Shown here piece by piece: positions 21,345 to 36,023 of a stretch of DNA of 39,165 bases. The notes under the pieces are model-generated. The model was not told the origin of the DNA, ran no database searches, and saw nothing but the letters and a program-made list of their open reading frames with translations. The stretch lies in contig JBEKSK010000002.1 in assembly GCA_049517155.1 (NCBI GenBank), positions 1-39,165 of the forward strand, read 5' to 3'. This stretch comes from Solirubrobacteraceae bacterium. Its GTDB lineage: Bacteria; Actinomycetota; Thermoleophilia; Solirubrobacterales; Solirubrobacteraceae. A program made the translations under genes and the position numbers. Position 1 is the first letter of the stretch. Every line of letters begins with the position of its first letter.

Positions 21345-22422
21345 TCAGGGCCTCTCCGCGGCGCCCGGATCTTGCCGCGATCACCTCCGCCATGATCGAG
21401 ATCGCGACCTCCTCGGGCGTAGCCGCGCCGATATCGAGCCCGCAGGGAGAGTGCACGCGCTCGAGTTCCTGCGGATCGACTCCCGCCGCGAGGAGCCGGG
21501 CACTGCGTTCCTTCGCGGTCCGGCGGCTGCCGAGCGCCCCGATGTAGCCGGCGTCACTGCGCAGCGCCGCGACGATCGCCGGCTCGTCGAACTTCGGGTC
21601 GTGGCTGAACACGATCACGCCGTCGCGCGGTCCAAGCTCGCGCTCGTCGATGGCGGGCGCCGGCCAGCCGATGTGCACCGTCGCGACGCGCGAAAAGCGC
21701 TCGGAACGCGCGAACGCCTCCCGCGCATCGGCGATCACGACCTCGTAGCCGGCCGCCGACGCGAGCGCGGCGACGGCGGCGGAGTAGTCGATGGCGCCGA
21801 CCAGCACGAGCGTCGGCGGCGTCCGGAAGGCCTGCAGATGGACACTCAGCCCGCCGCCGAGCGCCTCACCCGCTCGCCCGTAATGGCGCAGCGCGCTCGT
21901 GCCACGTTCGCTCAGCGCTGTGAGATCGCGCGCCACGCTCCGGTCGAGAAGCTCCGGTCCGTGCAGGCTGCCGATCACGCGTCCGTCGACGACTGCGAGC
22001 TTGGCCCCCGGCTCGTCCCCCTCGACGAGCGTGGCAATCCCGGCCGCCAACCCTCGTGCCGCAGCATCGAAGGCCTCGGCACTGGCTGCTCGGGCGCCAC
22101 CGGCCAGCTCATGCACGAAGACGTGGACAGTGCCGCCGCACATCAATCCGACCTCGTGTGCCGCCTCGTCAGACACTCCGTAGCGAAGCGCCCGCGGCGC
22201 GCCGTCGCCGGCCAGCATCTCGAGCGCGTTGACTACCACGTCGGCCTCCACGCAGCCGCCGGTGATCGAGCCTTCGATTGCGCCGTCGGCATCGATCAGC
22301 ATGAAGGCTCCAGGCTGAAACGGCGAGGACCCCTCGGCGTCGGTCAGCAGCGCGCAGACGATGCGTCGATCCTCGGCGACCCAGCGCAGTCCGACCGACA
22401 GCTGCTGGCTCACGACGCTCAT
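21313..22422 (-). CDS. xdhC: XdhC/CoxF family molybdoenzyme maturation (sulfuration/insertion) chaperone.
   Basis: N-terminal XdhC_CoxI region (GSSPFQPGAFMLIDADGAIEGSITGGCVE). C-terminal Rossmann region (LVLVGAIDYSAAVAALASAAGYEVVIAD...VIVFSHDPKFDEPAI...YIGALGSRRT). Confidence 0.85.
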   Translation of the reverse strand: MSVVSQQLSVGLRWVAEDRRIVCALLTDAEGSSPFQPGAFMLIDADGAIEGSITGGCVEADVVVNALEMLAGDGAPRALRYGVSDEAAHEVGLMCGGTVHVFVHELAGGARAASAEAFDAAARGLAAGIATLVEGDEPGAKLAVVDGRVIGSLHGPELLDRSVARDLTALSERGTSALRHYGRAGEALGGGLSVHLQAFRTPPTLVLVGAIDYSAAVAALASAAGYEVVIADAREAFARSERFSRVATVHIGWPAPAIDERELGPRDGVIVFSHDPKFDEPAIVAALRSDAGYIGALGSRRTAKERSARLLAAGVDPQELERVHSPCGLDIGAATPEEVAISIMAEVIAARSGRRGEALITTETTIRPR

Positions 22423-22443
22423 GACATCAGCGTAAAGCAGTAC

Positions 22444-23706
22444 TCAAGGCCGTCGAGGCGATCTTCGCCCGCCTGAGCGGCTCGCCGCGATCGCCGCCGC
22501 CACCTCGGCGAGTGCCTCGAAGTTGTGCCCGCTCACGAGCGCATCGCAATACGGCAGGGCCGCCACCATTCCGCCTGCCGCGACGGAGAATGCGCTCGAG
22601 CTCGCCCGGGGATTGACCCAGACGATCCGGTGGGCGAGGCGCCCCAGTCGCTCCATCTCGCGTCCCACAAGCATCGGGTCGCCGCGCTCCCAGCCGTCGG
22701 AGAGGATCACGACCACGGCGCCACGCGCCATGCCGCGGCGGCCATGACGGTCGTTGAACGCCTTCAGCGCATCGCCAATCCGTGTCCCGCTCGACCAGTC
22801 CGGCGCGGCGGCTGCGGCGCGCTGGATCGCCCGCTCCGGGTTGCGGGATGCCAGCGAGCGCGTCAACCGCGTCAGGCGGGTGGCGAACACGAAGGCCTCG
22901 GCGCCCGGTCCACTGCCCGCCGCGCAGGTCAGGAACTGCAGGTATGCGCGCGCGTAGGGCTCCATCGAACCGGAGATGTCGCACATCATCACGAGGCGTC
23001 GAGGGACCACGCGCCGGCGCCGGCGGGCGAGTCGGATCGGGTCGCCGCCGGTACGCAAGCTGGCGCGCAGGCTCCGGCGCAGGTCGATGCGCTCGCCGTG
23101 ATGCCCCTTCTCGTAGCGGCGGGTGCGCCGCGTCGGAGTGCAGAGCTGCAGCTGGGACATCAGGCGGTAGAGCTGCGCGAGCTCGTTGGGCTCGAGCGCG
23201 TCGAAGCTCTTGCTTCGCAGCAGCTCCGCGTCACTGGCCATCGCCGTGGGCACCTCCACATCGGCCGCGTCATTGTTCTCGCCGAGCGCGCTTGGCGCCG
23301 TGGACGACAGATTCGCTCCGCGGGCGAACGCCTCTGAGCGCGCCGGAACCCCTGTGCGAGCGCTCCTCTCCCGCTCCTGCGCCGGCGTGGCTGCGGTTTG
23401 CACGTCCGCGGCATCTGACCCCAGTTGAGGGCCGTCGCCGCCACCGAACACCGAGCGGAAGACAGCATCAAACGCCCCGGCCTGCGCCGGGTCGGACACC
23501 GCCATGGCGCGCAGCGTCCAGTACAGTCGCCGGCGGGTCACCGGCCGCGCGAGCGTGAGCGCCCGGGCGAGGTCAGCCGCGCGGGCGGGCGTCATCGGGA
23601 CGGCGGCAGCCTGCAGACGGCGGCTGAACGCCCCAACGAGCGCCGGCAGATCGAGCTCGATCATGTCGACCTCTGACGCTGCCGCGGGCGCGGCAGCGTC
23701 AGTCAC
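22444..23706 (-). CDS. coxE: VWA domain-containing CoxE-like protein.
   Basis: RLVMMCDISGSMEPYARAYLQFL (MIDAS DxSxS) preceded by IDLRRSLRASLRTGGDP, typical of CoxE/VWA_CoxE. Confidence 0.8.
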   Translation of the reverse strand: MTDAAAPAAASEVDMIELDLPALVGAFSRRLQAAAVPMTPARAADLARALTLARPVTRRRLYWTLRAMAVSDPAQAGAFDAVFRSVFGGGDGPQLGSDAADVQTAATPAQERERSARTGVPARSEAFARGANLSSTAPSALGENNDAADVEVPTAMASDAELLRSKSFDALEPNELAQLYRLMSQLQLCTPTRRTRRYEKGHHGERIDLRRSLRASLRTGGDPIRLARRRRRVVPRRLVMMCDISGSMEPYARAYLQFLTCAAGSGPGAEAFVFATRLTRLTRSLASRNPERAIQRAAAAAPDWSSGTRIGDALKAFNDRHGRRGMARGAVVVILSDGWERGDPMLVGREMERLGRLAHRIVWVNPRASSSAFSVAAGGMVAALPYCDALVSGHNFEALAEVAAAIAASRSGGRRSPRRP

Positions 23707-24622
23707 CGGCGCGCACGAGCGCTTCGAGGCCAGCGGCGCGGATCACCTCCTGGTCCTCGCCGTATTTGAGCACCGATCCGAGCGTGAGATCCACGGCCGC
23801 GGCGTCCAGGCGCTCGATTCCAAGTAGGTCGAGAGCCGCTAGCCAGTCGATCGCCTCGGCGATGCCGGGCGGCTTCTGCACGTCGCTCTCGCGCATGCGA
23901 GAAACAGCGTTCGCGACCGCCACTGCAAGCGTCTCGGAGGCGCCCCTAACCCGCAGGCGCACGATCGCCACCTCACGCTGCGCACTCGGATAGTCGATCC
24001 AGTGGTAGAGGCAGCGGCGCTTCACGGCGTCGTGCAGGTCGCGCGTGCGGTTGGAGGTCAGGACGATGATCGGTGGGTGCGTCGCCCTGATCGTGCCGAT
24101 CTCGGGAATCGTCACCGCGGCCTCCGCGAGCAACTCGAGCAGAAACGCCTCGAAGTCGTCATCGGCACGGTCGACCTCGTCGATCAAAAGCACGGCTGGC
24201 CGCGGGCCGGGGTGTTCGAGCGCGCGCAGCAACGGGCGCCGGATGAGGTACTCGGAGCCAAACAGCTCCTCCTCGCCGAGCCGCGAGCCGCTCGAATCCG
24301 CAAGCCGAATCGCCAGCAGCTGACGCGGATAGTTCCACTCGTAAAGCGCTTCGGCGGCGTCGATCCCCTCGTAGCACTGCAGGCGGATCAGCGGCGTGTC
24401 CAGCACCCTCGCCAGTGACTTGGCGGCCTCGGTCTTGCCGACCCCTGCCTCGCCCTCGAGCAGCAGCGGCTGCGGCAGTCGCGCGCTCAGAAACATCGAA
24501 GTCGCGAGACCCTCGTCGACCAGATAGTCGACCGCGGCCAGGCGTTGCGTGAGCGTGTCCACGTCCGGCAGCAGCCGGCGCAGCTCTACGTCGGCTTCCC
24601 CCGTGATCTCGGGAGGGTTCAT
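23699..24622 (-). CDS. coxD: MoxR/CoxD-type AAA+ ATPase.
   Basis: Walker A LLLEGEAGVGKTEAAKSLA, Walker B VLLIDEVDRAD, and YEWNYPRQLL. The preferred start is the ATG at 24622. The stop overlaps the coxE start by 8 nt. Confidence 0.8.
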   Translation of the reverse strand: MNPPEITGEADVELRRLLPDVDTLTQRLAAVDYLVDEGLATSMFLSARLPQPLLLEGEAGVGKTEAAKSLARVLDTPLIRLQCYEGIDAAEALYEWNYPRQLLAIRLADSSGSRLGEEELFGSEYLIRRPLLRALEHPGPRPAVLLIDEVDRADDDFEAFLLELLAEAAVTIPEIGTIRATHPPIIVLTSNRTRDLHDAVKRRCLYHWIDYPSAQREVAIVRLRVRGASETLAVAVANAVSRMRESDVQKPPGIAEAIDWLAALDLLGIERLDAAAVDLTLGSVLKYGEDQEVIRAAGLEALVRAGD

Positions 24623-24794
24623 CGGGCGACCGCCGCCGGCGCGCCGGCGCCGGGCCGGAAGCCGAGCACCGCCTGCCCGAGGACCGCCCGGTGGTTGAGG
24701 GCTTTGCGGTCCAGCATCTGAGCGGCCGCGAACGATACTGCTCGAGCGCCGCGACCAACACACCGGACGGCAGCCCGGCTGGGCCCGTGCCGGC

Positions 24795-25184
24795 TCAGGC
24801 GCCCGTGTGAACCATCACCGAGGTGGCTTTCACCGTCGCCGTCGCGGCCATACCCGCGTGCAGCCCGAGCTCCTCGACGGAGTCCCTCGTGATCGCGGCG
24901 GTGATCCGGTGCGGACCGGCCTCGATCTCGACCAGCGCCATCACGCCGGAAACCTCGACAGACGTCACGACACCCGGGAATCGGTTGCGGGCGGAGAGGT
25001 TGCTCCGCGTCGCGTGGCGCTTGGGCGACGCCGAAACGCGATCCACCTCCGTCCGGTCGACCAGGCGGCGGTTTCGCTCGTCGCGAAGCGTCGTGATCTT
25101 CCCGGCTCGGTCCCAGCGGCGCAACGTGTCAACGCTCACACCCAGCGCCTTCGCCGCTTCACCCATCGTCAGAGTCTCCGACAT
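24795..25184 (-). CDS. Molybdate/tungstate-responsive regulator candidate: MerR/excisionase-type HTH fused to a TOBE (Mop) oxyanion-binding domain.
   Basis: From the ATG at 25184: HTH MGEAAKALGVSVDTLRRWDRAGKI. TOBE-like SARNRFPGVVTSVEVSGVMALVEIEAGPHRITAAITRDSVEELGLHAGMAATATVKATSVMV. The upstream 151 codons of the track ORF look non-coding. Confidence 0.75.
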   Translation of the reverse strand: MSETLTMGEAAKALGVSVDTLRRWDRAGKITTLRDERNRRLVDRTEVDRVSASPKRHATRSNLSARNRFPGVVTSVEVSGVMALVEIEAGPHRITAAITRDSVEELGLHAGMAATATVKATSVMVHTGA

Positions 25185-25355
25185 GCGCACGCAAAGCATG
25201 CCAGACCAAGGTGGACGCCGGCGACGCCGCCGGCTCGCGTTCGGTTGCTGCGTTTCGCGCCAAGCCCCAACCGCCTGAGGACTCGCGACCAACGCGCGGC
25301 GTGCCACGGCAAACGCCGGCGCGCGAGAGCTGCGCCGCAATCGAGTTCCGCGGAG

Positions 25356-25446
25356 TGCATATGCAATCGGACAACGAACATCGATCGGCAAGCAACAACG
25401 TCGGCAAAGACTGCGCGCGACCACATATGCAGTGCGCTTATATAGT
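25356..25446. promoter_or_regulatory. AT-rich control region for the tup-like operon: repeated CATATGCA boxes and a TATAGT -10-like hexamer.
   Basis: TGCATATGCA, a perfect 10-bp palindrome, at 25356..25365. CATATGCA again at 25424..25431, 66 bp apart. TCGGCAA direct repeats at 25385 and 25401. TATAGT at 25441..25446, 6 nt before the ATG at 25453. Confidence 0.45.
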
Positions 25447-25452
25447 GGGCCG

Positions 25453-27531
25453 ATGACACGACACAGCAGCCGATTCCCGGGCCGCCTCTGGCGGCCAATA
25501 AACCTTCCCGGTCGCCCTGGCCCTCTGCGCCACCTTCGACCGCTGCCCTTCCTCGTCGTTGCGGTCGTCGCGGCGCAACTGCTCGCCCCGGCGCTCGCGA
25601 GCGCAGACAGCTCCTCGACGCTCACCGTCGTCGGCACGAGCGACGTCAGCGACTCCGGCCTCGTCCCGAATCTGATCCAGCCGGAGTTCCACAGCGCCTA
25701 TCCGCAGTTCTCGTTTCACTACATCGGAACCGCCAGCGGCACCGCGATCACCGACGCCGAAACCGGCTCCGTGGGTGCGAGCGTCCTGATCGTCCACGCC
25801 GCATCACTGGAGAACCAGTTCGTTGCCGGCGGCTACTCCTACGAGCAGTACGGTCGCGCGATCTTCACGAACGACTTCGTGCTCGCCGGACCGACCGGCG
25901 ACCCCGCCGGCGTGTCGGCCGCCGGAGCCACGAACGGATCCAACAACATCGTCCAGGCCTTCGCCGACATCGCGGCGGCCGGATATAACAGCGGCGGCAC
26001 GCCGCTGGTCACGTTCGTGTCTCGAGGCGGTACGCCCGGCACGACCGTCGAGGAGCACCAGATCTGGGCCCTCGTCGCCAGCCTGGCCAGCCCGCCGGCG
26101 GGCCTGCACCTCTGCACCGTCAGCGCTGCCGACGGCGGTGGCGAGACACCCGTGTCGGCGGCGAGTGGCCTCGGTGGCCAGCCCTGCGGCGGACTGCCGC
26201 CCAGCGGGGATCTGCCGACTTGGTATGTGACCACCGGCGTCACGCAGGGCCCGAATGTCGTGGACGCCAACGCCTGCACGGGGTACGCGAGCCCCGCAAA
26301 CTCGTGCTACGTCCTGACCGACCGCGGCACCTACGACTATCTCGCCTCCGGCGCCGATCCCGCTGGCGCGATCCCGACCCTCGCGATCCTGACTCGCAAC
26401 AACAGCACCTCTGCCCCAGGGGGAGCTGATGAGCTGATCAACTACTTTCATTCCTACATCGTCAACCCAGCGAAACCCAGCGAGCAGGTCAACCTGACCG
26501 CCGCCGAGGATTTCGTGAACTTCCTCACCTCTCCCGCGCTCCAGGCGCAGCTGAAGACCTACCTCGACGACACGACCGACCCGGGCGGACCGCCGTTCGT
26601 CGCCGACGCCTCGCCAAGCCTCACCGACGCCGGCATCCCGAGCGTCGATGTCGCGGACACGCCGGTGACCGTGACCGGGACGCTGACGAACGCGGAGCCG
26701 GGCTATCCGGCCCTGGCGAGCCAGACGGTGACGGTTGACGAGATCGAGGCGGGACTGCCGGTGGCAGTCGCCAGCGGGACGACGAACTCGAGCGGCAGCT
26801 ACAGCATCACGTTCACGCCCACCTCGAGCGGCGCATACCAGGTCGCGACGGGCCAGATCGCCCAGGTCGAGAACAGTGCGCTCAGCCCGGTGTTTGGCGA
26901 TCTGCTCTCACCGGCCGCGACCGCCGCGGTCACGATGAGCGTGCAGGGATCGGTGTCGATCGCCTCGGCGTCGGCGCGTGCCGGCATCGTCACCGTCTCA
27001 GGATCGATCGCGCCGGCTGCCCCAGACGCCAACGCGGCGGTCGCGCTGCTGGCGCGCCCGAGCGGCTCGACGAAAAGCTACTCGGAGATCGGCGCGGCGC
27101 CGCTTGTCGCGGGCCAGAGCTCCTACACGATCTCAAGCCCCCTGGCCAAGGGCAGCTGGCAACTCGAGACGAGCTACACCGATCCTGGAGCTCTGCTCGC
27201 CGCAACGGCCACGGGTGAGGTCACCGTCGATAACGCCGGCGGGTCGAGCGTCACCTTGAGCAAGGCCAAGGTCAGCGCCGGGAAGCTCACGCTGACCGGG
27301 ACGATCAGCCCTGATCCGATCGCGACGGGCGCAAGGGTCGAGCTCTTCGGGCTGCGCAGCGGCAGCACGAAGTTCACGAAGCTGGCCGCTGCGACGCTCA
27401 AGATCGACCAGACGACGTTCACGATCAAAGCCAAGCTGAGGCGTGGATATCACTGGATACTGCAGCTTGAATACGTCCAGACAGGGCAGCGCACGAGCTA
27501 TTCGAAGCTCAGCACGATCGACGTACACTAG
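25453..27531 (+). CDS. tupA: TupA-family (tungstate/molybdate-type) periplasmic-binding-protein domain fused to three C-terminal beta-sandwich-like repeats. Secreted, no lipobox.
   Basis: The PBP part matches the TupA layout: LTVVGTSDVSDSGLVPNLIQPEF, IGTASGTA, LIVHAASLENQFVAGG, TNDFVLAGPTGDPAGV, FVSRGGTPGTTVEEHQIW, WYVTTG, YVLTDRGTYDYL, LINYFHSYIVNP. The C-terminal ~300 aa form repeats (VTVTGTL.., IVTVSGSIAP..GSTKSY.., KLTLTGTISP..GSTKFT..). Signal peptide ...LLAPALASA. An alternative GTG start is at 25432. Confidence 0.75.
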   Translation: MTRHSSRFPGRLWRPINLPGRPGPLRHLRPLPFLVVAVVAAQLLAPALASADSSSTLTVVGTSDVSDSGLVPNLIQPEFHSAYPQFSFHYIGTASGTAITDAETGSVGASVLIVHAASLENQFVAGGYSYEQYGRAIFTNDFVLAGPTGDPAGVSAAGATNGSNNIVQAFADIAAAGYNSGGTPLVTFVSRGGTPGTTVEEHQIWALVASLASPPAGLHLCTVSAADGGGETPVSAASGLGGQPCGGLPPSGDLPTWYVTTGVTQGPNVVDANACTGYASPANSCYVLTDRGTYDYLASGADPAGAIPTLAILTRNNSTSAPGGADELINYFHSYIVNPAKPSEQVNLTAAEDFVNFLTSPALQAQLKTYLDDTTDPGGPPFVADASPSLTDAGIPSVDVADTPVTVTGTLTNAEPGYPALASQTVTVDEIEAGLPVAVASGTTNSSGSYSITFTPTSSGAYQVATGQIAQVENSALSPVFGDLLSPAATAAVTMSVQGSVSIASASARAGIVTVSGSIAPAAPDANAAVALLARPSGSTKSYSEIGAAPLVAGQSSYTISSPLAKGSWQLETSYTDPGALLAATATGEVTVDNAGGSSVTLSKAKVSAGKLTLTGTISPDPIATGARVELFGLRSGSTKFTKLAAATLKIDQTTFTIKAKLRRGYHWILQLEYVQTGQRTSYSKLSTIDVH

Positions 27532-27536
27532 GCCGC

Positions 27537-29132
27537 GTGACGCCCCGGCGAACTCGTGTGAACAGACAGCGCCGGACCGCCAGCCGCCGTCTCGGGATCC
27601 TGCCCGGGCGGCGCTTGGCGGTGCTCATCGTGCTCGCGGCGGGGCTGCTCGGATGCCTGGCGAGCGCAGCTTCGGCAGACGAGTCGATCGCGACGGCGAT
27701 CATCGTCAAGCCCGGTGAGCAATCCCCAAGCGAAGTGGCGCCGGTGTCTCTCTCGACGCTCCTGGCTACACCCGCCTGCGTGCCCTATTCCAACACCACC
27801 AGCACGCTCACCACCGTCGCCCCCTCCAGCAGCCAGTCGCTCACCACCTCGAGCGACACGTGGCCGATCTACACGATTCTGGCGTGCGGCCTGGGCCAGA
27901 CGCTGAGCGCCGGTGATTGGGTGCAGATACAGGACCCCTCGACCGGGCCTGAGGCGCCACTTTTCTACTCAGCCGGTGACCTGACGACCCCGAGCGACTT
28001 CCAGGACCCCGGGCAGGTCCCTCTGATCATCGCCGAGCCGGGCGAGAACGTCCTGCAGTACTACCGGCCGCAGCGACGGCCCGACGGCGGCGTGACCGAC
28101 GAGAACGCGTACGACTTCTTCCAGGTCAACCCCGGACCGATCACGATCTGGGTCGACGAGGGCGGATCTCCGCCCCTTTCGGTCGCGATTACCGGGGTTC
28201 CCGCCGGCGGCGTCACGGCGGGGGCAACCGTGAGCCTCACGGCCGCGGAGAATCCGAACGGCGCAACCCTCCCGGATCCGGCGAATCTCAGCTACAGCTG
28301 GACCAGCAACGACAGCGTCCAGTTCAGCAACGACGGCGCCGGGCAGGCCGTGCAAGCGACGCTCGGGGCCGCCGGCGAAGCCGAGGTCACAGTCGAGGTG
28401 CAAGACAACCAGGACGGCACCTTCGGATTCGCCAACGCAAGGATCACCGTCGGAGCACCCGGATCCGACGCGACATCTGCGACCCCCAACTCCTCCAACG
28501 GCCAGACGTCGCAGACATCCGCCCCTGCGACCGGCCCCAAGCAGAGCAACGGCAGCGCGACCGGCGGAACCGCGGAGCCCCGCCACCACAGCGCTCCCGT
28601 CGCACCGGGCGCCGGCAGCGGACAGAGCAGCGGCGCTCCCGCCACCGCCAAACCGAGGCCTGCTCCCAAGAGCGAATCCGCGCCAAGCAGCGCGACGACC
28701 GGGGCCTCCTCCACGAAAGCAGCCCCGACCGACTCCGGGCACCCGGCGCCGTCAAGCTCTCCGCAAGCGGTGAGCGGCTCCGCCGGCGCGGCGGCCCACG
28801 CCTCGCAGCCCCCTGGTCACGCCGCCCGGCCCAGCGCACGCCTCACGAGGCCGCCCACCGCTTCGCCCACCCACATGGCCGCAACAACACGCCAGGCACG
28901 GGTCACGGGACGGCTGATCGAAGGCGTGACGGTGCTCCCGGCCGCCGCGAGCCCGCTCGTCTACGCAGTCCCGCCGACAATCGCGACGGCAGCGCCTGTG
29001 CGCCGCGGCGCGGTCGCCTCCGCCCTCCCCGCGCTCGCCGCTGGACTCGTCGTGACCCTGCTCTTCAGCCTGGGCGCCGGGCGCGAGCTGCGCTGGCGAC
29101 GGCGCCTGGGCGCGCGGCTGCACGGAAGCTGA
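27537..29132 (+). CDS. Surface protein of unknown function: signal peptide, globular region with a PKD/Ig-like segment, ~140-aa Pro/Ser/Ala/Gly-rich spacer, C-terminal TM anchor with a basic tail.
   Basis: Signal peptide RRLAVLIVLAAGLLGCLASAASA. Ig-like segment SVAITGVPAGGVTAGATVSLTAAENP...EVTVEVQD. Low complexity spans about 28450..28890. C-terminus LPALAAGLVVTLLFSLGAGRELRWRRRLGARLHGS. It starts 6 nt after the tupA-like stop. Confidence 0.7.
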   Translation: MTPRRTRVNRQRRTASRRLGILPGRRLAVLIVLAAGLLGCLASAASADESIATAIIVKPGEQSPSEVAPVSLSTLLATPACVPYSNTTSTLTTVAPSSSQSLTTSSDTWPIYTILACGLGQTLSAGDWVQIQDPSTGPEAPLFYSAGDLTTPSDFQDPGQVPLIIAEPGENVLQYYRPQRRPDGGVTDENAYDFFQVNPGPITIWVDEGGSPPLSVAITGVPAGGVTAGATVSLTAAENPNGATLPDPANLSYSWTSNDSVQFSNDGAGQAVQATLGAAGEAEVTVEVQDNQDGTFGFANARITVGAPGSDATSATPNSSNGQTSQTSAPATGPKQSNGSATGGTAEPRHHSAPVAPGAGSGQSSGAPATAKPRPAPKSESAPSSATTGASSTKAAPTDSGHPAPSSSPQAVSGSAGAAAHASQPPGHAARPSARLTRPPTASPTHMAATTRQARVTGRLIEGVTVLPAAASPLVYAVPPTIATAAPVRRGAVASALPALAAGLVVTLLFSLGAGRELRWRRRLGARLHGS

Positions 29133-29161: not shown

Positions 29162-29833
29162 ATGCGTTCACTTTCCCCGATCCTCGCACTGAGCTCGCAC
29201 GACATCGACGAGGCGATCTTCCACGTCGCGAGCGTGCTCGAGGTGCCCGTGCTGATCCTCGCGCTGCTCGCCCTCGCCATGGTGATCCTCGAACTCGGAA
29301 GCTTCGTGATCGAGTTGCGGCGCCGGCGACGGCGCCGTTTCACGGCCCTCTCGAGTGGAGCCGAGCGGGCGCGGGAGGCGCTCGCGATCGACGATCGCCG
29401 GGGCGCCGCGGCGGCGCTGCACGGACTCGCGCGCAGCGCGGCGATGGCCGACACGCTGGCGTTCATCGCCGCTCACGCGCGCCGGGACGGGAGCGACTAC
29501 GAGCTCAACAAGGCGCTCGCCGACTTCGACTTCAGCTCGCGACGACGGCTCGACCGCACCCGGCTGCTCGTCCGCGTCGGACCGGCGCTCGGCCTGATGG
29601 GAACGCTCATCCCGCTCTCGCCCGCGCTCACCGGGCTCGCCAACGGCAACACCTCGACGCTCAGCAACGACCTGCGTCTGGCCTTCAGCGTCACCGTCGT
29701 CGGACTGATGATCGGCGCGATCGCGTTCGGACTCTCGCTCACGCGCGACCGCATGTACGGGCAGGACCTCTCCGACCTCGAATACGTGGCCGCCGCCATC
29801 AGCGATCCGCCGGCGCCGGTGAGCACACGATGA
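29162..29833 (+). CDS. MotA/TolQ/ExbB family proton-channel protein.
   Basis: Three TM segments in the ExbB arrangement (TM1, long cytoplasmic loop, TM2-TM3). Family motif RVGPALGLMGTLIPLSPAL...LAFSVTVVGLMIGAIAFGLSL. The stop overlaps the next start (ATGA at 29830..29833). Confidence 0.75.
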   Translation: MRSLSPILALSSHDIDEAIFHVASVLEVPVLILALLALAMVILELGSFVIELRRRRRRRFTALSSGAERAREALAIDDRRGAAAALHGLARSAAMADTLAFIAAHARRDGSDYELNKALADFDFSSRRRLDRTRLLVRVGPALGLMGTLIPLSPALTGLANGNTSTLSNDLRLAFSVTVVGLMIGAIAFGLSLTRDRMYGQDLSDLEYVAAAISDPPAPVSTR

Positions 29834-30165
29834 TCTCGGTCACCCCGCACGCCCGCAACCGCGAGGACCGAGCCGGCGACCCGCTCGACGGCCTTGTCAA
29901 CCTGTTCGATCTGGGGATCGTCCTCGCCGTCGCGTTTCTGCTGGCGGCGCTCTCCTCCCTGCATCTGGCCGGCACGATCACCAGTCACGGCCTCCACGCC
30001 ACGCCGGCCAAGATCATCGTGGTCCAGCCGGGCCAGACCGTCGCGCCGCTGCCGAAGCCCGGAACGCGCACGATCGGCCGGGGCACTCAGGCCGGCATTG
30101 TCTACCGCCTCGCCAACGGAGAGCTCGTGTACGTCCAGGCGGCGCCGCGCAAAAAGAGCCGCTGA
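29830..30165 (+). CDS. ExbD/TolR-like single-pass membrane protein. From memory it resembles the DUF2149 type.
   Basis: 111 aa. DPLDGLVNLFDLGIVLAVAFLLAAL carries an Asp at the start of the TM helix (codon 29908..29910), as in ExbD/TolR/MotB. A small extracytoplasmic domain follows. The stop TGA at 30163..30165 is followed directly by the GTG start of the first permease. Confidence 0.6.
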   Translation: MISVTPHARNREDRAGDPLDGLVNLFDLGIVLAVAFLLAALSSLHLAGTITSHGLHATPAKIIVVQPGQTVAPLPKPGTRTIGRGTQAGIVYRLANGELVYVQAAPRKKSR

Positions 30166-30891
30166 GTGGCCTATCTCTGGCACGAGCTGCGCAGCGCGGT
30201 CCCGCTGATCGTGAGCGGGAACGCCTACATCCTCGCCGTCACCTGGGTCACGATCCGTGTGGCCGTGGTGTCCACCGCCGCGGCGCTCGTGATCGGCCTG
30301 CCGATCGGGCTCACGCTCGGCCTCGGGCGTTTCCGCGGCCGACGCGCGCTGCACATCCTCGCCAATGCAAGCCTCGCGCTGCCACCCGTGATCGTCGGCG
30401 TTGGGGTCCTTTTGCTGCTGCTCCCAGCCGGGGCGTTCGGCTCGCTGCGGATCGAGTTCACGCTGCGCGGCGTGTACGTCGCGCAAACAATTCTCGCCCT
30501 CCCCTACATCGTTGCTCTCACCCCGGCTGCGATCCAGGCGCTACCGCCCGGCCTGCTCGCGCAGGCGCGGCTGCTCGGCGCCGGGCGCCGCCAGCTCGCG
30601 CTGCTAGCGCTGCGCGAGGCCAAGATCGGCGTGTTCGCGGCCGTGATCGCCGCCCTCGGCGCAGCGCTCTCCGAGGTCGGCGCAGTGGTCATCGTCGGCG
30701 CGAACATCGCAGGTCACGACCAGACGCTCGCCAGCGCGGTGCTCGCGCAGATCAACGACTACGCGAACTATCCCTACGCCCTGGCGATCGGCCTCGTGCT
30801 GCTCGCACTCATCCTCGTGCTGGTCGGCCTGCTCACGGTGCTCCAGCAACGCACAAGCGGAATCCAGCTGCGCTTCCGGGGACTGCCTTGA
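30166..30891 (+). CDS. tupB: ABC transporter permease, TupB-like (paralogue 1).
   Basis: Six-TM permease with the EAA-loop region LLGAGRRQLALLALREAKIGVFAAVIAALGAALSEVGAVVIVGANIAGHDQTLASAVL. Confidence 0.8.
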   Translation: MAYLWHELRSAVPLIVSGNAYILAVTWVTIRVAVVSTAAALVIGLPIGLTLGLGRFRGRRALHILANASLALPPVIVGVGVLLLLLPAGAFGSLRIEFTLRGVYVAQTILALPYIVALTPAAIQALPPGLLAQARLLGAGRRQLALLALREAKIGVFAAVIAALGAALSEVGAVVIVGANIAGHDQTLASAVLAQINDYANYPYALAIGLVLLALILVLVGLLTVLQQRTSGIQLRFRGLP

Positions 30892-30990: not shown

Positions 30991-31713
30991 ATGCACCTGC
31001 TGTGGGAGGAGCTTCGCAGTGCCGTGCCGCTCATCGTGCACGGGAACCCCTACCTGCTGAGCATCGTCTCCTTCACCGTCGAGGTCGCCGCGATCGCGAC
31101 GGCGGCTGCGGCCTTAATCGGACTGCCGATCGGCCTCGCGATCGGGCTCGGGCGCTTCCGCGGCAGACACGCGCTGCACGTGCTGGCCAACGCGAGCCTA
31201 GGCCTGCCACCCGTGCTGGTCGGGCTGTTTCTGTTCCTCATCCTCGTGCCGCAGGGCCCGCTCGGCTCGCTGCATCTGCTCATCACCAAGCAGGCCGTGT
31301 TCATCGCGCAGACGATCCTCGCTCTCCCCTACGTCGTCGCGCTCACCGCAGCGGCGATCCAGGGGCTCCCGCAGGGGCTCCTGTCGCAGGCGCGCGTGCT
31401 CGGCGCCGGCCGCCGCCAGCTCGCCACACTCGCGCTGCGCGAAGCGAGAATCGGTGTGATGGCCGCGCTGATCGCGGCGCTTGGGTCCGCACTGTCGGAG
31501 GTCGGCGCGATCGTCATCGTCGGCGGCAACGTGTACGGCTTCGACCAGACTCTCGCGAGTGCCGCGCTGTATGAGGCAAACGCAGCCCGCTACGACGACG
31601 CCGTAGCAATCGGGATTGTCCTGATCGCGCTGATCCTGGTCCTGATGTGCGCCGTCGGCGTGCTTCAGCAGCAGGGCGCGGGCATCCGCCTGCGCTTTCG
31701 GTCGGCGTCGTGA
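30991..31713 (+). CDS. tupB: ABC transporter permease, TupB-like (paralogue 2).
   Basis: Collinear with paralogue 1 over its full length and, by eye, identical at well over half of positions (LWEELRSAVPLIVHGNPY.., LIGLPIGLAIGLGRFRGRHALHVLANASLGLPPV.., LGAGRRQLATLALREARIG.., SEVGAIVIVGGNVYGFDQTLASAAL). Confidence 0.8.
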   Translation: MHLLWEELRSAVPLIVHGNPYLLSIVSFTVEVAAIATAAAALIGLPIGLAIGLGRFRGRHALHVLANASLGLPPVLVGLFLFLILVPQGPLGSLHLLITKQAVFIAQTILALPYVVALTAAAIQGLPQGLLSQARVLGAGRRQLATLALREARIGVMAALIAALGSALSEVGAIVIVGGNVYGFDQTLASAALYEANAARYDDAVAIGIVLIALILVLMCAVGVLQQQGAGIRLRFRSAS

Positions 31714-32678
31714 GCGAAAAGCAGTCCCACGCGAATGCGGCGCTGTTGCGCTGCGAGAACCTGAGCGTGTGCCGCGGCGCGCGCGAGGTCGTCACCGACG
31801 TCAGCCTGGAGCTTCGCGCCGGCGAGCTGGTCGCCCTGCTCGGGCCCAACGGCGCCGGCAAGAGCACGCTGCTCGACGCGCTCGCCGGTGTGCTGGCGCC
31901 CGCGCAGGGGCGGGTCGAGCGCGCCGGCCGCGTCGCGATCGCGCTCCAGGCGCCCGATCTCGCGCGCCGCACCGTCCTCGCGAATGTGATGCTTGCGCTC
32001 GGCTGGTGGGGTGTCCCCGGCCACGAGCGCGAGGATCGCGCGCGCGCCGCGCTGCGAGCGCTGGGCGGCGAGCACCTCGCCCAGCGCCAGGCTGCGAGCC
32101 TCTCCGGCGGCGAGCGCCGTCGCGTGCACCTGGCTCGCGCGATCGCCGTGCGCCCCGACGTCCTGATGCTTGACGAGCCCTTCGGCGGCCTCGACACCGA
32201 GACGCGGGCGACGCTCCTCGACGACGCGGTCGGCGCACTGCGCTCGCAGGCCAGAGCAACCCTCGTCGTCGTCCACGACCGCAGCGAGGCATGGGCGCTC
32301 GCCGACCGCCTGCTGATCCTGATCGGTGGCCGGCTCGTCGCGGAAGGCACCCCACGCGACCTGCTGGAGCGACCCCCGAGCGCGCTCGTCGCCCGCTTCC
32401 TGGGGTTTGACGGATCGCTGCAGGACGGCGGCGAGTTGCTGTTGACGAGACCTGCTCACGTCGCGCTCGACCCGGCCGGCCCGCTGCGCGCCCGCGTCAC
32501 GCGAGCCGTCGCGCTGGAGGACGGCGTGCGCCTCGAACTCGAGCTCGACAGCGGACGGCTCTACACCGTGGCGCCGCTGCCTGCTCCCCGGCCGAGTGAC
32601 ACCGTGCGTGTGCGCATCGACGGCGGCGCCCGCTTCGCCCGCAGCGTGACAGACGACGGCGCGGCGCCCAGTCCTTAG
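31710..32678 (+). CDS. tupC: ABC transporter ATP-binding protein with a C-terminal TOBE-like domain (TupC-like).
   Basis: Walker A LLGPNGAGKSTLLD, signature LSGGERRRVHLARA, Walker B VLMLDEPFGGLD. The GTG start at 31710 overlaps the permease stop (GTGA). The track ORF begins earlier, at 31647, inside tupB2. Confidence 0.8.
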   Translation: MSEKQSHANAALLRCENLSVCRGAREVVTDVSLELRAGELVALLGPNGAGKSTLLDALAGVLAPAQGRVERAGRVAIALQAPDLARRTVLANVMLALGWWGVPGHEREDRARAALRALGGEHLAQRQAASLSGGERRRVHLARAIAVRPDVLMLDEPFGGLDTETRATLLDDAVGALRSQARATLVVVHDRSEAWALADRLLILIGGRLVAEGTPRDLLERPPSALVARFLGFDGSLQDGGELLLTRPAHVALDPAGPLRARVTRAVALEDGVRLELELDSGRLYTVAPLPAPRPSDTVRVRIDGGARFARSVTDDGAAPSP

Positions 32679-33244
32679 CCGGCGCTGGCGCCCGCGCCGA
32701 CCGTGGCGCCCGGTGTCGCGCAGGAGCGAAGGCCGTAGGTCGCCGCATCGGCGCCGACCGGGCTCACCCGCAGCGCAGCTTCGGCGCTCGCCACCCCGCC
32801 GCTATCGCCTCGCTTCGCGGCCGCCGCGAGGTCGGTGTACTCGCCAACCGCCCGGGCGAGCGCCCGGAGGTAGCGCCCGAGTGCGGCACGCTCGCTCGCC
32901 TTCTCGCTGGGACGTCGCAGCGCCCGAAGCGAACCCGACTCCGCGCGCACGAACGGCAGCGCATCGGCCAGGTAGCCCGCGAGCCCCCGCAGCTTCTGCG
33001 CCGCGGAGTCGCCCGAATCCGGCGGCGCGATCAAGCGCACCTTGCGCACCGTACTCGCACAGATCGCATTGGCGCGAGCGGTGAAGTCAGCCTTCGTGTA
33101 GCTGCCGCAGCCGCACAGGAGCACGGCGAGCGCGATCACGGCAAGGGCTCGTCCGGCGTGGCGCACACGGCTCGAGCATGGAGCCAGCCGCGCAACTCGC
33201 GCCGGTGCCGGCCCGGCGCCTGGCCACAAGCGCCAACCGCTCAC
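32675..33244 (-). CDS. Putative lipoprotein of unknown function.
   Basis: Lipobox-like LAVLLCGCGS after a hydrophobic stretch. The true start is probably internal (VRHAGRALAVIAL...). It is the last gene of the moa operon, and its stop codon overlaps the tupC stop convergently. Confidence 0.55.
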   Translation of the reverse strand: MSGWRLWPGAGPAPARVARLAPCSSRVRHAGRALAVIALAVLLCGCGSYTKADFTARANAICASTVRKVRLIAPPDSGDSAAQKLRGLAGYLADALPFVRAESGSLRALRRPSEKASERAALGRYLRALARAVGEYTDLAAAAKRGDSGGVASAEAALRVSPVGADAATYGLRSCATPGATVGAGASAG

Positions 33245-33247
33245 CTG

Positions 33248-33727
33248 CTAGTGCTCGCTGCGCACATCCGCCATCAGCGCCACGGCGTGCGGCAGCGCAT
33301 CGGCAATCGCCGCGGCGGCCTGCTCGATCGACCGCGGCGAGCCGGGGAAGTTGATGATCAGCGTCGCGCCGCGAATGCCCGCCACGCCCCGCGAGAGCAG
33401 CCAGTGCTTGGTGTGCGCCCGCGACGCTTCGCGCATCGCCTCGGCGATACCCGGCACCTCACGTTCGATCACGCTCCGTGTCGCCTCCGGCGTGACATCG
33501 CGCGGGGCGACGCCGGTACCGCCGGTCGTCAGCACCAGCGCGCATTGATCGACGTCGCTGAGGTGGCGCAGCCGCCCCGCGATCATCCCCAGCTCGTCGG
33601 AGATCACCTCGCGCGCGACGACCTCGCCGCCGATGCCCACGGCGAACTGCTCGAGGCGATCGCCGCTCTCGTCGCCGCCCACTCCCGCCGCCCGCGACGT
33701 GCTGACCGTGATGATCGCCACACGCAC
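33248..33727 (-). CDS. moaB: MoaB/MogA family molybdenum cofactor biosynthesis protein.
   Basis: MRVAIITVSTSRAAG...DQCALVLTTGGTGVAPRDVTPEAT...PGSPRS, the canonical MoCF_biosynth domain. Confidence 0.85.
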   Translation of the reverse strand: MRVAIITVSTSRAAGVGGDESGDRLEQFAVGIGGEVVAREVISDELGMIAGRLRHLSDVDQCALVLTTGGTGVAPRDVTPEATRSVIEREVPGIAEAMREASRAHTKHWLLSRGVAGIRGATLIINFPGSPRSIEQAAAAIADALPHAVALMADVRSEH

Positions 33728-33729
33728 GC

Positions 33730-34218
33730 TCAGCCGCCTTCTTCCAGGCGCCAGTCGTTGCGCCCACCGGTCTTCTCGAGCAGCACGACCTGCTCGACCG
33801 CCACCCCGCGCTCGAGTCCCTTGACCATGTCGTAGACGGTCAGCGCGGCGACACTACAGGCGACCATCGCCTCCATCTCGACGCCGGTGGCAGCCGACAC
33901 GGACACCTCGGAGATCAGCTCGACGAGGCCGCCCTCAACGTCCACCCCCGCGCGAACGTCGACGAAGCTGAGCGCGATCGGGTGTGCGAGCGGAATCAGC
34001 GCCGCGGTCTGCTTGGCCGCCATGATCCCGGCGAGCCTGGCGGTGCCCAGCACCTCCCCCTTCGCCACGTTGCCGGCGACGATCGCCGCGGCCGTCTCGC
34101 GCGACATGCGAACTCGCGCGCGGGCGCGCGCGCGACGTTCGCTCACCGGCTTGGAGCCGACGTCGACCATCCGGGCGTTGCCGTCAGCGTCGAGGTGCGT
34201 GAGGCGCGCGCCACTCAT
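33730..34218 (-). CDS. moaC: Cyclic pyranopterin monophosphate synthase accessory protein MoaC.
   Basis: LTHLDADGNARMVDVGSKPVSERRA...LIPLAHP...TGVEMEAM...ALTVYDM.K. The ATG overlaps the upstream stop (ATGA at 34215..34218). Confidence 0.9.
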   Translation of the reverse strand: MSGARLTHLDADGNARMVDVGSKPVSERRARARARVRMSRETAAAIVAGNVAKGEVLGTARLAGIMAAKQTAALIPLAHPIALSFVDVRAGVDVEGGLVELISEVSVSAATGVEMEAMVACSVAALTVYDMVKGLERGVAVEQVVLLEKTGGRNDWRLEEGG

Positions 34219-34892
34219 GTGCCCGCCGCGTCCGCCGGCAGCGCGACTGCCTCGCCCGCCACCCAGCGCACCTCGCCGCCGTCCAGCTCCCGCTTCCAGA
34301 TCGGTGCCTCCGCCTTGATCCGGTCGATCAGCTCACGCGCACCCGCGAAGGCGGCATCGCGGTGTGCCGCCGAGACCGCCACGACGACGCCCGGCTCCCC
34401 CAGCGCAACGCGCCCCACGCGGTGCTCGGCGGCCGCTGCCGCCAGGCCATGGCGGTGCACGCACTCCGCCGCGATCGCCGCCATGCGCTGCTCGGCCATT
34501 TCGCGATAGGCCTCATAGTCGAGAAACTCGACGTCGCGAACGGTGCCCTCGAAGGTGACGACGGCCCCGGCGCCGGGCCGGCGCACAAGCGCGGTGACAT
34601 CCGCGGGCGTGATCGGGGTCTCGCTGACGCGTACATCCGGGCCCGCGCCGCCGCTGACCGGTGGCAGCAGGGCAAGCTCGTCGCCCGCGTGCAGCGGTGT
34701 GTCCTCCCCGACCAGCTCGCGGTTGACGGCCATCCGCACCGGCAGCCGCTCGAGCAGATCGGCGAGCCGCGAGTCCTGCGCGAGCGCCGCCAGCGCGTCG
34801 CCCACGGTCGCCCCGTCAGCCAGCTCCGCCTCGATCGCGTCGGCTCCCGCGCGCTCACGCAGCTGGGCGAAAAGTCGTATCCGCAAGATCAT
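34215..34892 (-). CDS. moaDE: Fused molybdopterin synthase: MoaD (sulfur carrier) plus MoaE (catalytic subunit).
   Basis: The first ~81 aa are MoaD-like and end in ...LALLPPVSGG. A MoaE-like region follows directly (GAVVTFEGTVRD...EYEAYREMAE...VAVSAAHRDAAF...IDRIKAEAPIWK). Confidence 0.8.
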   Translation of the reverse strand: MILRIRLFAQLRERAGADAIEAELADGATVGDALAALAQDSRLADLLERLPVRMAVNRELVGEDTPLHAGDELALLPPVSGGAGPDVRVSETPITPADVTALVRRPGAGAVVTFEGTVRDVEFLDYEAYREMAEQRMAAIAAECVHRHGLAAAAAEHRVGRVALGEPGVVVAVSAAHRDAAFAGARELIDRIKAEAPIWKRELDGGEVRWVAGEAVALPADAAGT

Positions 34893-34956
34893 GACCGGCT
34901 CAGCCTACCCCGCCGCCGCCCGCGGCTCGCCGAGGTCGCCCTGTTATCTTCGCGTG

Positions 34957-35955
34957 ATGGCGGGAGGGGCGCAACTCACGGACGGCCACGGACGCGCGAT
35001 CGGCGATCTGCGCCTCTCGGTGACCGACCGCTGCGGCTTCCGCTGCCGCTACTGCATGCCGGCCGAGGGCATGCAGTGGCTCGAACGCGCGGAGCTTCTG
35101 AGCTTCGAGGAGATCGAGCGCCTCGTGCGCGTGCTGGTCGAGATGGGCGTACGCGATGTCCGCCTCACCGGCGGCGAACCGCTCCTGCGCCGCGAGCTGC
35201 CCCGCCTGGTCGCGATGCTGGCGGCGATCCCCGGGCTGAACGAGCTCGCGCTCACGACCAACGGCTACCAGCTCGAGCGCGACGCCCACGCACTGGTTCA
35301 CGCGGGCATTACGCGCTTCAACGTCTCCGTCGACTCACTCCAGCGCGAGCGCTTCAGCGAGATCACCCGCCGCGACGCGCTGGACAAGGTCCTGCGCGGC
35401 CTTGCGACGCTCGCCTCTTTCCCGCAGGCGCACCCGATCAAGGTCAACGCCGTCGCGATGCGCGGCTTCACCGAGACGGAGCTGATCCCTTTCGCCCGCT
35501 TCGCCCGCGAGCACCCCTACGAGGTCCGCTTCATCGAATTCATGCCGCTCGACGCCGACCACGCCTGGACGCCCGACGACGTGCTGAGCGGCGAGGAGAT
35601 CCGCGCGGCGATCCACGCCGTCTACCCACTCGAGCCCGAACCCCGCACGCCCAGCGCGACCTCACGAACCTTCCGCTTCGCGGACGGCCGTGGCCGGATC
35701 GGCTTCATCAACCCGGTTTCCGAGCCCTTCTGCGGCGACTGCAACAGGATCCGCGTGACCGCCGACGGCCAGCTGCGCACGTGCCTTTTCTCGCTGCGCG
35801 AAACGGACCTGCGCGCGGTGCTGCGCGGCGCTGGCGGCGACGACGAACTCGCGGCCGTACTGCGCGACGCCGTCTGGCGCAAGGAGCTCAAGCACCACAT
35901 CGGCGATCCGGGCTTCGTGCAGCCCGACCGCACGATGTCGGCCATCGGCGGCTGA
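34957..35955 (+). CDS. moaA: GTP 3',8-cyclase MoaA (radical SAM).
   Basis: From the ATG at 34957: DLRLSVTDRCGFRCRYCMP (CxxxCxxC), VRLTGGEPLLRR, and C-terminal FCGDCNRIRVTADGQLRTCLF. The upstream 138 codons of the track ORF overlap moaDE antisense. Confidence 0.9.
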   Translation: MAGGAQLTDGHGRAIGDLRLSVTDRCGFRCRYCMPAEGMQWLERAELLSFEEIERLVRVLVEMGVRDVRLTGGEPLLRRELPRLVAMLAAIPGLNELALTTNGYQLERDAHALVHAGITRFNVSVDSLQRERFSEITRRDALDKVLRGLATLASFPQAHPIKVNAVAMRGFTETELIPFARFAREHPYEVRFIEFMPLDADHAWTPDDVLSGEEIRAAIHAVYPLEPEPRTPSATSRTFRFADGRGRIGFINPVSEPFCGDCNRIRVTADGQLRTCLFSLRETDLRAVLRGAGGDDELAAVLRDAVWRKELKHHIGDPGFVQPDRTMSAIGG

Positions 35956-35957
35956 TG

Positions 35958-35987
35958 GGGTGAGTGGGTGCGGTGCACCCCTCACCC
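35958..35987. terminator. Strong hairpin between convergent moaA and moeA.
   Basis: GGGTGAG-T-GGGTGC-GGT-GCACCC-CTCACCC: 13 bp in total with a one-nt bulge and a triloop, beginning 3 nt after the moaA stop. No U-tract. Confidence 0.5.
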
Positions 35988-36023
35988 ATGCACCTCGCGC
36001 CTGACCTGACAGCGGTGGCGCTC

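Follow-up and report, generated by a model that had tools for sequence, protein, structure and literature searches.

A predicted C-tail-anchored stalk protein as a candidate partner of an ExbB/ExbD-like motor in a molybdate/tungstate-type ABC importer operon of Solirubrobacterales

Motors of the ExbB/ExbD 5:2 type act via an elongated, membrane-anchored partner that is encoded adjacent to them. What serves as the partner when genes of this kind lie inside the operon of an ATP-binding cassette (ABC) importer? The question is raised by a stretch of 39,165 nucleotides (nt) from a Solirubrobacteraceae bacterium (GenBank assembly GCA_049517155.1, contig JBEKSK010000002.1, positions 1 to 39,165 of the forward strand; hereafter the window), which has a GC content of ~70%. 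The operon comprises, in this order, a divergent MerR-TOBE/Mop regulator, a substrate-binding protein (SBP), a protein of 531 amino acids (aa), a MotA_ExbB protein, a DUF2149 protein, two permeases and an ATPase; we refer to the 531-aa product as the stalk protein. We tentatively propose that this protein is a motor-coupled, wall-spanning stalk, which would link MotA_ExbB/DUF2149 to the extracytoplasmic SBP step of molybdenum/tungsten (Mo/W) uptake. The coupling to the motor is hinted at by synteny, by the conservation of the transmembrane (TM) helix and the juxtamembrane motif, by the single type of head and by an exploratory co-variation with MotA_ExbB.

The gene of the stalk protein has a GTG start, lies 5 nt behind the stop codon of the SBP gene and ends 30 nt before the start of the MotA_ExbB gene. 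The original prediction, made from the letters of the window, had described a signal peptide, a globular part, a spacer, a short conserved segment, a TM helix and a basic tail, with no LPXTG or LAXTG motif. All of these elements were recovered, and a pattern search of the protein returned neither LPXTG nor LAXTG. The layout is as follows.

27537..29132, + strand: gene of the predicted C-tail-anchored stalk protein, 531 aa
27537..27677, + strand: signal peptide, aa 1-47 (hydropathy; n-region conservation; AxA↓D site and Cys statistics)
27678..28172, + strand: N-domain, aa 48-212 (AlphaFold2 confidence score above 90; its own profile matches 103/104 members)
28173..28460, + strand: diverged PKD/immunoglobulin (Ig)-like domain, aa 213-308, as modelled (PF00801 in orthologues; Foldseek)
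28461..28898, + strand: disordered T/P/G/S/A stalk, aa 309-454 (confidence score 40-57; composition)
28899..28976, + strand: conserved juxtamembrane motif, aa 455-480 (column statistics over 104 sequences; confidence score ~71-75)
29007..29129, + strand: TM helix, aa 491-515, and cytoplasmic basic tail, aa 516-531 (hydropathy, AlphaFold2, conservation)

To describe the head, an AlphaFold2 model was built from a 104-sequence family alignment; the single-sequence model reached a mean predicted local distance difference test score (pLDDT) of only 39. In the family-based model, aa 50-310 have pLDDT >90 and form two beta-rich domains. The first, the N-domain, is beta-rich with two short helices and holds a conserved Y-x-R-P…D-x-N-x-x-D patch plus two near-invariant cysteines (C81, C117); the other near-invariant residues are W109, Y175, R177, P178, D188 and D193. 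Searches of Pfam, NCBIfam and PDB sequences returned no match for the N-domain, and Foldseek against the PDB gave generic Ig-like matches only. As judged by these searches, the N-domain is a putative new, lineage-specific domain. The second domain is modelled as a diverged PKD domain, that is, a PKD/Ig-like beta-sandwich. The window protein itself matched no Pfam model, even at E<=10, and the assignment is made because its orthologues match PF00801 and because of the fold. Specifically, orthologues match PF00801 (PKD) with E-values of 1e-8 to 9e-12, two of them (P0004 and P0009) scoring 35.5 and 45.3 bits in the aligned region against a cutoff of 23.5, and aa 215-306 (pLDDT >90) are matched in Foldseek by the PKD domains of ColG/ColH with a target-normalised TM-score of 0.62-0.72. 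The original description of a globular part with no recognised family except an Ig/PKD-like stretch thus stands for the N-domain and for the PKD fold, the latter through orthologues and structure and not through a Pfam match of the window protein.

The stalk is 146 aa long in the window protein and 86-221 aa across the family (median 123). It consists of ~75% T/P/G/S/A, with ~14-15% Pro and ~10-15% Gly. Its sequence varies, while its presence, composition and length are kept. The original prediction of a rigid Pro-rich spacer is right about a long low-complexity linker and wrong about rigidity, given a Pro content of only ~14-15% and pLDDT values of 40-57. Charge is segregated between head and stalk across the family: the stalk is net positive in 102/104 members (K+R ~12, His ~5.6, D+E ~1.8), and the head is strongly acidic (D+E ~23.6 vs K+R ~6.4). 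A small motif, PTGPxxSxGxxPGGxxG, occurs at the start of the otherwise unconserved stalk (28524..28577, aa 330-347; G333 93%, G339 89%) and might act as a hinge or mark a place of glycosylation or binding.

The stalk runs into the conserved segment RLIEGVTVLPAAASPLVYAVPP, and past the helix the protein ends in the tail RELRWRRRLGARLHGS. Hydropathy places the TM segment at aa 491-515, and the helix of the AlphaFold2 model spans aa 497-525. Together, the C-terminal 80 aa (hereafter the C-module) form the best-conserved part of an otherwise fast-evolving protein. Mean identity to the window protein is 0.52 in the juxtamembrane motif and 0.49 in the TM helix, while the N-domain reaches 0.33, the PKD domain 0.29 and the stalk 0.22. 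Across the 104 sequences the juxtamembrane consensus reads V-x-G-R-L-I-S-D-V-x-P-L-P-x-x-x-S-P-L-V, in which G458 is invariant, S472 and P473 reach 97% and 93%, and L460, S472, P473 and L474 are all conserved at >=92%. Where the helix reaches the cytoplasm, the consensus is L-L-x-L-G-A-G-R-E-L-R-x-R-R (G513 invariant, E517 95%, L509 95%).

At the N-terminus, a hydrophobic signal at aa 24-47 is followed by an ASA↓DE site (hydropathy), and the n-region of the window protein contains …SRRLGILPGRRLAV…. Where the N-terminus is complete, members agree in a twin-arginine n-region, RRxGIxPGRR[FL]A[LV], followed by AxA↓D; the RR motif is present in 47/104 gene calls, and many of the others are N-terminally truncated calls. 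Judged by this motif and not by a dedicated predictor, the signal is probably of the twin-arginine translocation (Tat) type. A Tat-like signal together with a C-terminal helix predicts a Tat-exported, C-tail-anchored protein with its N-terminus outside and its C-terminus inside. Two observations on the signal may be recorded here: the string RRLLAVPL also occurs in many SBP orthologues, and a lipobox-like LLGC (L-x-[GA]-C) is found at aa 37-40 (27645..27656), 8 residues before AxA↓D. For the family as a whole, LLGC is not taken as a lipoprotein signal, as Cys occupies that position in only 22/90 members.

How the C-module is distributed was examined by an exhaustive search with its hidden Markov model (HMM) over 1.84 billion representatives. 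At the 50% identity level, the search retrieved 194 representatives, of which 129 had E<1e-10; nearly all of the 194 are 430-565 aa long and carry the module at the extreme C-terminus. The N-domain HMM matched 103 of the 104 full-length members, and the remaining one looks related by eye. Because the N-domain is shared in this way, the members are a single family with a single fixed architecture, in which the anchor is not a movable module. A word-index homology search had found 10 relatives, and an N-domain profile 3 more; this is an undercount, probably due to low-complexity words. Among genomes, the members belong to metagenome-assembled genomes (MAGs) of Solirubrobacterales/Solirubrobacteraceae, a few of the 35 loci being labelled Actinomycetota only.

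The same alignment settles whether the open reading frame (ORF) is real. Since head, variable stalk and C-module follow one another in one frame in 104 independent sequences, the ORF is not a frame artefact. The GC content at third codon positions is 0.84 and high also across the low-complexity part, and the frame is kept. The spacer, for which the original prediction had allowed the possibility of poorly conserved junk with frame errors, is kept in presence, composition and length, and its frame runs into the most conserved part of the protein. In some loci the gene is split over 2-3 frames or partly matched (L008, 5840..7340, and the MFD long-read MAG loci L010, L022, L028, L038 and L040). 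These cases most likely reflect indels that long-read assembly introduced into GC-rich, low-complexity DNA, and not pseudogenes.

One link between the stalk protein and the motor genes is their order. As the original prediction had stated, the gene lies directly upstream of an ExbB/ExbD-like pair, here MotA_ExbB and DUF2149, and its proposed co-occurrence with that pair is borne out in both directions. In the forward direction, all 35 GTDB genome loci and 8 further fetched loci show the order SBP–stalk protein–MotA_ExbB–DUF2149–permeases–ATPase, which holds down to ~30% head identity; no other gene context of the family was seen among the loci examined. In the reverse direction, a DUF2149-seeded metagenome scan yielded 80 loci, of which 32 were informative (complete MotA_ExbB N-terminus and >=1000 nt upstream). 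A bona fide C-module ends within 200 nt of MotA_ExbB in 29/32 of them, and the total rises to 30/32 with L122, which carries a divergent version of the same design, VEGFVL…, helix, then LLLGLGAEIEARW. A similar divergent C-module is present in L125, a locus outside the 32 whose DUF2149 is 62% identical. In L064 (3057..5509), a deletion took the SBP C-terminus, the whole stalk protein gene and the MotA_ExbB N-terminus, so that a truncated SBP is fused to a truncated MotA_ExbB.

Within the fetched cassettes, DUF2149 is mostly 76-94% identical to the window copy (down to ~60% in the metagenome set), MotA_ExbB 65-86%, the permeases mostly 70-90%, the SBP ~52%, the C-module ~55% and the N-domain ~30-35%. 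The motor is therefore strongly constrained across cassettes and not a decaying remnant. Among the products of the cassette, no other is single-pass and bears an extracytoplasmic extension. The close packing of the genes, with gaps of 5 and 30 nt and the overlap of MotA_ExbB with DUF2149, also speaks for a link. A plain membrane anchor would not need such conservation of the C-module, which argues for coupling to the motor.

Co-variation was explored in 37 complete cassettes by regressing pairwise distances on the mean permease/ATPase distance, which served as a proxy for phylogeny. The largest residual correlation was that of the C-module with MotA_ExbB (r 0.55, Mantel p ~5e-4); the values of the C-module with DUF2149, with the N-domain of the same protein and with the SBP core were 0.27, 0.23 and 0.01, respectively. 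The N-domain gave residual r values of 0.42 with MotA_ExbB and 0.39 with the SBP core. The ranking was stable under four other backgrounds and a quadratic fit. This exploratory analysis gives supportive but weak backing to motor coupling. Together with synteny and the TM/juxtamembrane conservation, it upholds indirectly the original suggestion that the motor acts on this protein.

The neighbouring genes define the setting in which such coupling would operate.

24795..25199 (start approximate), − strand: MerR-type helix-turn-helix plus TOBE/Mop regulator (Pfam MerR/HTH_17 and TOBE; NCBIfam Mop domain)
25432..27531, + strand: TupA-like SBP, 699 aa (Pfam PF12849; weak NCBIfam TupA match)
29162..29833, + strand: MotA/TolQ/ExbB-family proton-channel subunit, 223 aa (PF01618, 33.2 bits vs a cutoff of 22.9)
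29830..30165, + strand: DUF2149 protein, HmuV family, ExbD/TolR-like (PF09919, 52.7 bits)
30166..30891, + strand: TupB/ModB-type ABC permease 1 (PF00528; NCBIfam ABC_perm1 above cutoff)
30991..31713, + strand: TupB/ModB-type ABC permease 2 (PF00528; NCBIfam ABC_perm1 above cutoff)
31647..32678, + strand: ABC ATPase, true start probably near 31710 (PF00005; synteny)

The MotA_ExbB protein has 3 TM helices and a GPALGLMGTL motif, and hhalign aligned its TM2/TM3 on E. coli ExbB with low probability. The start of the DUF2149 gene overlaps the stop of MotA_ExbB, and DUF2149 abuts the first permease gene. DUF2149 consists of an N-terminal TM helix and a ~60-aa extracytoplasmic part with no recognised wall-binding domain. 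Its residue D27 is invariant in 15/15 sequences; in the N-terminal helix (…NLFDLGIVLAVAFLLAA), D27 aligns with ExbD D25 and TolR D23 at an hhalign probability of only 3-16%. These probabilities, like that for MotA_ExbB, are low because the profiles are shallow. DUF2149 has >5000 relatives, the best 120 at >=79% identity. PDB sequence searches with MotA_ExbB and DUF2149 gave nothing meaningful, tblastn of DUF2149 against plasmids found nothing, and PADLOC returned no Zorya-like or other defence match.

The SBP comprises a PBP_like_2 core (aa 60-368) and a C-terminal Ig-like tail of ~330 aa. Inspection of the termini of the window SBP and of ~35 orthologues showed signal peptides, and a lipobox or TM anchor in neither the window SBP nor the orthologues; an anchor-free secreted SBP with an Ig tail is unusual for a presumed monoderm. 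The regulator probably responds to Mo/W, and its gene flanks most orthologous cassettes. Tandem paralogous permease genes are kept in nearly all fetched cassettes, and two such genes imply a heterodimer. Downstream lie genes of molybdenum cofactor (Moco) biosynthesis (mogA-like, moaC, moaD-moaE, moaA and moeA; 33248..37220), and upstream, on the − strand, coxD/moxR-like, coxE- (von Willebrand factor A, vWA) and xdhC-like genes (21313..24763). Because of these neighbours, the imported substrate is most likely molybdate or tungstate, as predicted from gene content. Just past the ATPase gene, a 189-aa ORF (32675..33244, − strand) contains LLCGCGS, which resembles a lipobox, and belongs to no Pfam family; L001 and L003 have unannotated genes at the corresponding position, and L064 has a similar ORF upstream (2511..3026).

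From these elements a mechanism can be outlined, in which the stalk protein would be a dedicated third membrane component of the adjacent ExbB/ExbD-like proton-driven complex. It would probably be exported via Tat, lose its signal peptide by cleavage and be retained in the membrane through its C-terminal helix, N-terminus out and C-terminus in. Docking on the motor may involve the juxtamembrane motif together with the TM helix and its GRELR end in the cytoplasm. The disordered cationic stalk of ~90-220 residues would traverse the cell wall, and the acidic two-domain head, in the outer wall zone, would meet the unanchored TupA-like SBP or its Ig tail. By moving or pulling the stalk, the motor might couple the proton-motive force to Mo/W capture or to delivery to the ABC permease. 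In the preferred model the head would thus engage the SBP and the C-module the motor. Taken as a whole, a three-part device driven by the proton-motive force in a presumed monoderm, with an ExbB-like pentamer, a DUF2149 dimer and an inverted-TonB stalk that moves or unloads an Ig-tailed SBP across the wall during Mo/W import, seems to us possible, if rather doubtful.

Several findings weigh against the motor-coupled proposal. The TM helix is without the SHLS/His of TonB/TolA, and at no TM column of the 104 sequences does His rank in the top three residues. The juxtamembrane profile did not match the post-TM region of E. coli TonB/TolA, the scores being negative; neither Pfam (E<=10) nor Foldseek against the PDB found a TonB_C or TolA-III fold in the head; and the polarity of the helix is opposite to that of TonB/TolA. 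Solirubrobacterales are presumed monoderm, so there would be no outer-membrane receptor to energise, and no DUF2149/MotA_ExbB pair has a demonstrated function in the literature. The motor pairs in L054 (3759..4942) and L060 (1058..2168) stand behind unrelated genes, with both SBP and stalk protein missing. In the co-variation analysis, the SBP Ig tail tracks both the C-module (residual r 0.48) and MotA_ExbB (residual r 0.47), and the signal is diffuse by sub-region, the top value involving the cytoplasmic loop of MotA_ExbB and not TM1.

Homology to TonB/TolA was rejected on the grounds of missing TonB_C, missing SHLS/His, reversed polarity and the absence of a profile match. A likeness between TonB 34-QVIELPAPAQPISV and the segment RLIEGVTVLPAAASPLV of the stalk protein was seen by eye and is a possible lead. 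The TonB/TolA design principle invoked by the original prediction therefore survives as layout and motor adjacency and falls as homology; we tentatively regard the stalk protein as a possible analogue of TonB and not as a homologue.

Four other explanations were considered. According to the first, the main rival, which the original prediction had also raised and which we consider unlikely, the protein is a passive tether or scaffold whose stalk holds the secreted SBP at the surface via the head, while the motor acts elsewhere and no force passes through the stalk. With neither lipobox nor TM anchor on the window SBP or its ~35 orthologues, a monoderm must retain the SBP somehow; SBP and stalk protein are adjacent everywhere and jointly missing in L054 and L060; and residual co-variation links the N-domain to the SBP core and the C-module to the SBP Ig tail. 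A tether leaves unexplained, however, why conservation peaks in the TM helix, at its cytoplasmic GRELR end and in the juxtamembrane motif, and why the C-module tracks MotA_ExbB above all else. Besides, BLASTP detected no resemblance of the head to the SBP Ig tail from which a homology-based Ig-Ig pairing could be surmised. Tethering and motor coupling are compatible models.

In the second explanation, the protein is a stator anchor: by binding anionic polymers of the wall, the cationic stalk would hold MotA_ExbB/DUF2149 in place and make up for the peptidoglycan-binding domain that DUF2149 lacks, leaving the motor free to work on another partner. This would fit the mere ~60 extracytoplasmic residues of DUF2149 with their lack of a recognised wall-binding domain, the net cationic stalk in 102/104 members and the co-variation of the C-module with MotA_ExbB. 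It is nevertheless improbable: the conserved acidic two-domain head is left without a role, known 5:2 motors anchor through the B subunit itself, and neither Pfam nor Foldseek detected a wall-binding domain in the stalk protein. The third explanation takes the product for a PKD-type surface protein or adhesin with no tie to the rest of the operon, in which it is simply carried along; this view could appeal to the frequency of PKD domains in surface proteins and to the fast evolution of the head (~30% identity across the family). It is very improbable in view of a position kept in 35/35 genome loci and 30/32 reverse-test loci over deep divergence, of a family not seen in other contexts and of a C-module that is conserved and co-varies with MotA_ExbB. 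Finally, that the C-terminal motif, helix and basic tail form a sorting signal for an exosortase, archaeosortase, rhombosortase or sortase, removed on processing, as the original prediction had thought of the exosortase/archaeosortase type, is scarcely credible despite a superficial likeness to the layout of motif, hydrophobic helix and Arg-rich cluster, for a pattern search found no LPXTG, LAXTG, PEP, PGF or GlyGly signature, no family of NCBIfam (a library that we take to hold curated CTERM sorting-domain models) matched at E<=0.01, the conserved motif lies ~12-16 residues ahead of the helix and not at its start, the module sits on a single head architecture among the 1.84 billion representatives, whereas sorting signals serve many unrelated cargoes, and no sortase or exosortase family matched among the scanned window ORFs (~19.4-38.2 kb).

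Compared with known systems, the motor-coupled reading has partial precedents. Like TonB/TolA, the stalk protein has one TM helix with a conserved segment close to the membrane, a long disordered linker that contains Pro, and a globular domain at the far end. As with TonB/TolA, the setting is nutrient uptake, and the gene neighbours one of the MotA/ExbB family as well as one for an ExbD-like protein with an aspartate in its TM helix. Unlike TonB/TolA, its head is N-terminal and its anchor C-terminal, so that the helix runs from outside to inside; it has a cleavable Tat-like signal peptide; its host presumably has no outer membrane or TonB-dependent receptor; and its partner is an SBP-dependent ABC importer. 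Tat-exported, C-tail-anchored proteins are exemplified by the E. coli hydrogenase small subunits HyaA/HybO and by FdnH, which likewise combine a twin-arginine signal with a single C-terminal TM anchor in N-out/C-in orientation. In those cases, however, the anchored proteins are the redox-cofactor subunits of respiratory enzymes, and they have no long stalk, in contrast to the protein described here. The operon resembles TupABC/ModABC in its Tup/Mod-type SBP, permease, ATPase, Mop/TOBE regulator and neighbouring Moco genes. We know of no motor genes, stalk protein or 330-aa SBP Ig tail in canonical TupABC/ModABC systems, which usually have one permease gene.

Recently, vWA proteins have been inferred to be non-TonB partners, since their genes are syntenic with tolQR-like genes and their products carry a foreign head on a TM helix and a disordered linker (PMC12204202). 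The stalk protein is similar to these putative transducers in placing a non-TonB head on a TM helix and disordered linker, and in both cases gene order suggests the link to the motor. The vWA transducers keep the TonB topology, many keep SHLS, and they occur in diderms (PMC12204202), whereas the stalk protein has inverted topology, a head made of a putative new domain plus PKD, and an actinobacterial host. In the hmu heme operon of Bacteroidota, HmuU and HmuV (DUF2149) are described as homologues of ExbB and ExbD (PMC10100974). HmuT-HmuU-HmuV shares with the present cassette the order membrane protein–MotA_ExbB–DUF2149 and a setting of metal or cofactor acquisition. HmuT is described as a multi-spanning membrane protein, in contrast to the stalked single-pass protein, and the hmu system, which occurs in diderms alongside a CobN-like dechelatase and a TonB-dependent receptor, has no ABC importer. 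We found no description of the cassette or of the stalk protein family in full-text literature on DUF2149, Hmu proteins, ExbB with tungstate transporters, or monoderm Ton components. Relative to known partners of 5:2 motors, the stalk protein is new in its inverted polarity, its cleavable Tat-like signal, its head and its presumably monoderm ABC-importer setting.

ExbB/ExbD-type motors have so far been understood as energising outer-membrane processes, and their scattered occurrences in monoderms, Actinobacteria included, were judged probably non-functional in a recent survey (PMC12204202). The present cassette looks selected, because the identities of DUF2149 and MotA_ExbB are high and the gene order is essentially fixed, which argues against non-functionality for the DUF2149 motor class. 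The cassette puts such a motor into a Mo/W ABC importer, together with a candidate transducer whose design is inverted. HmuV (DUF2149) has been stated to be diagnostic of heme-transport operons (PMC10100974), a status that is contradicted by a DUF2149 protein in a Mo/W-type ABC operon beside Moco genes. The eight-gene cassette offers a compact test system with an easy phenotype, growth under Mo or W limitation, and could reveal both the function of the motor and how a partner can dock with reversed helix polarity. If the three-part device outlined above exists, one uptake system would use both ATP and the proton-motive force, a functional analogue of TonB would be known for the first time outside diderms, and the DUF2149/HmuV motor class would gain a function.

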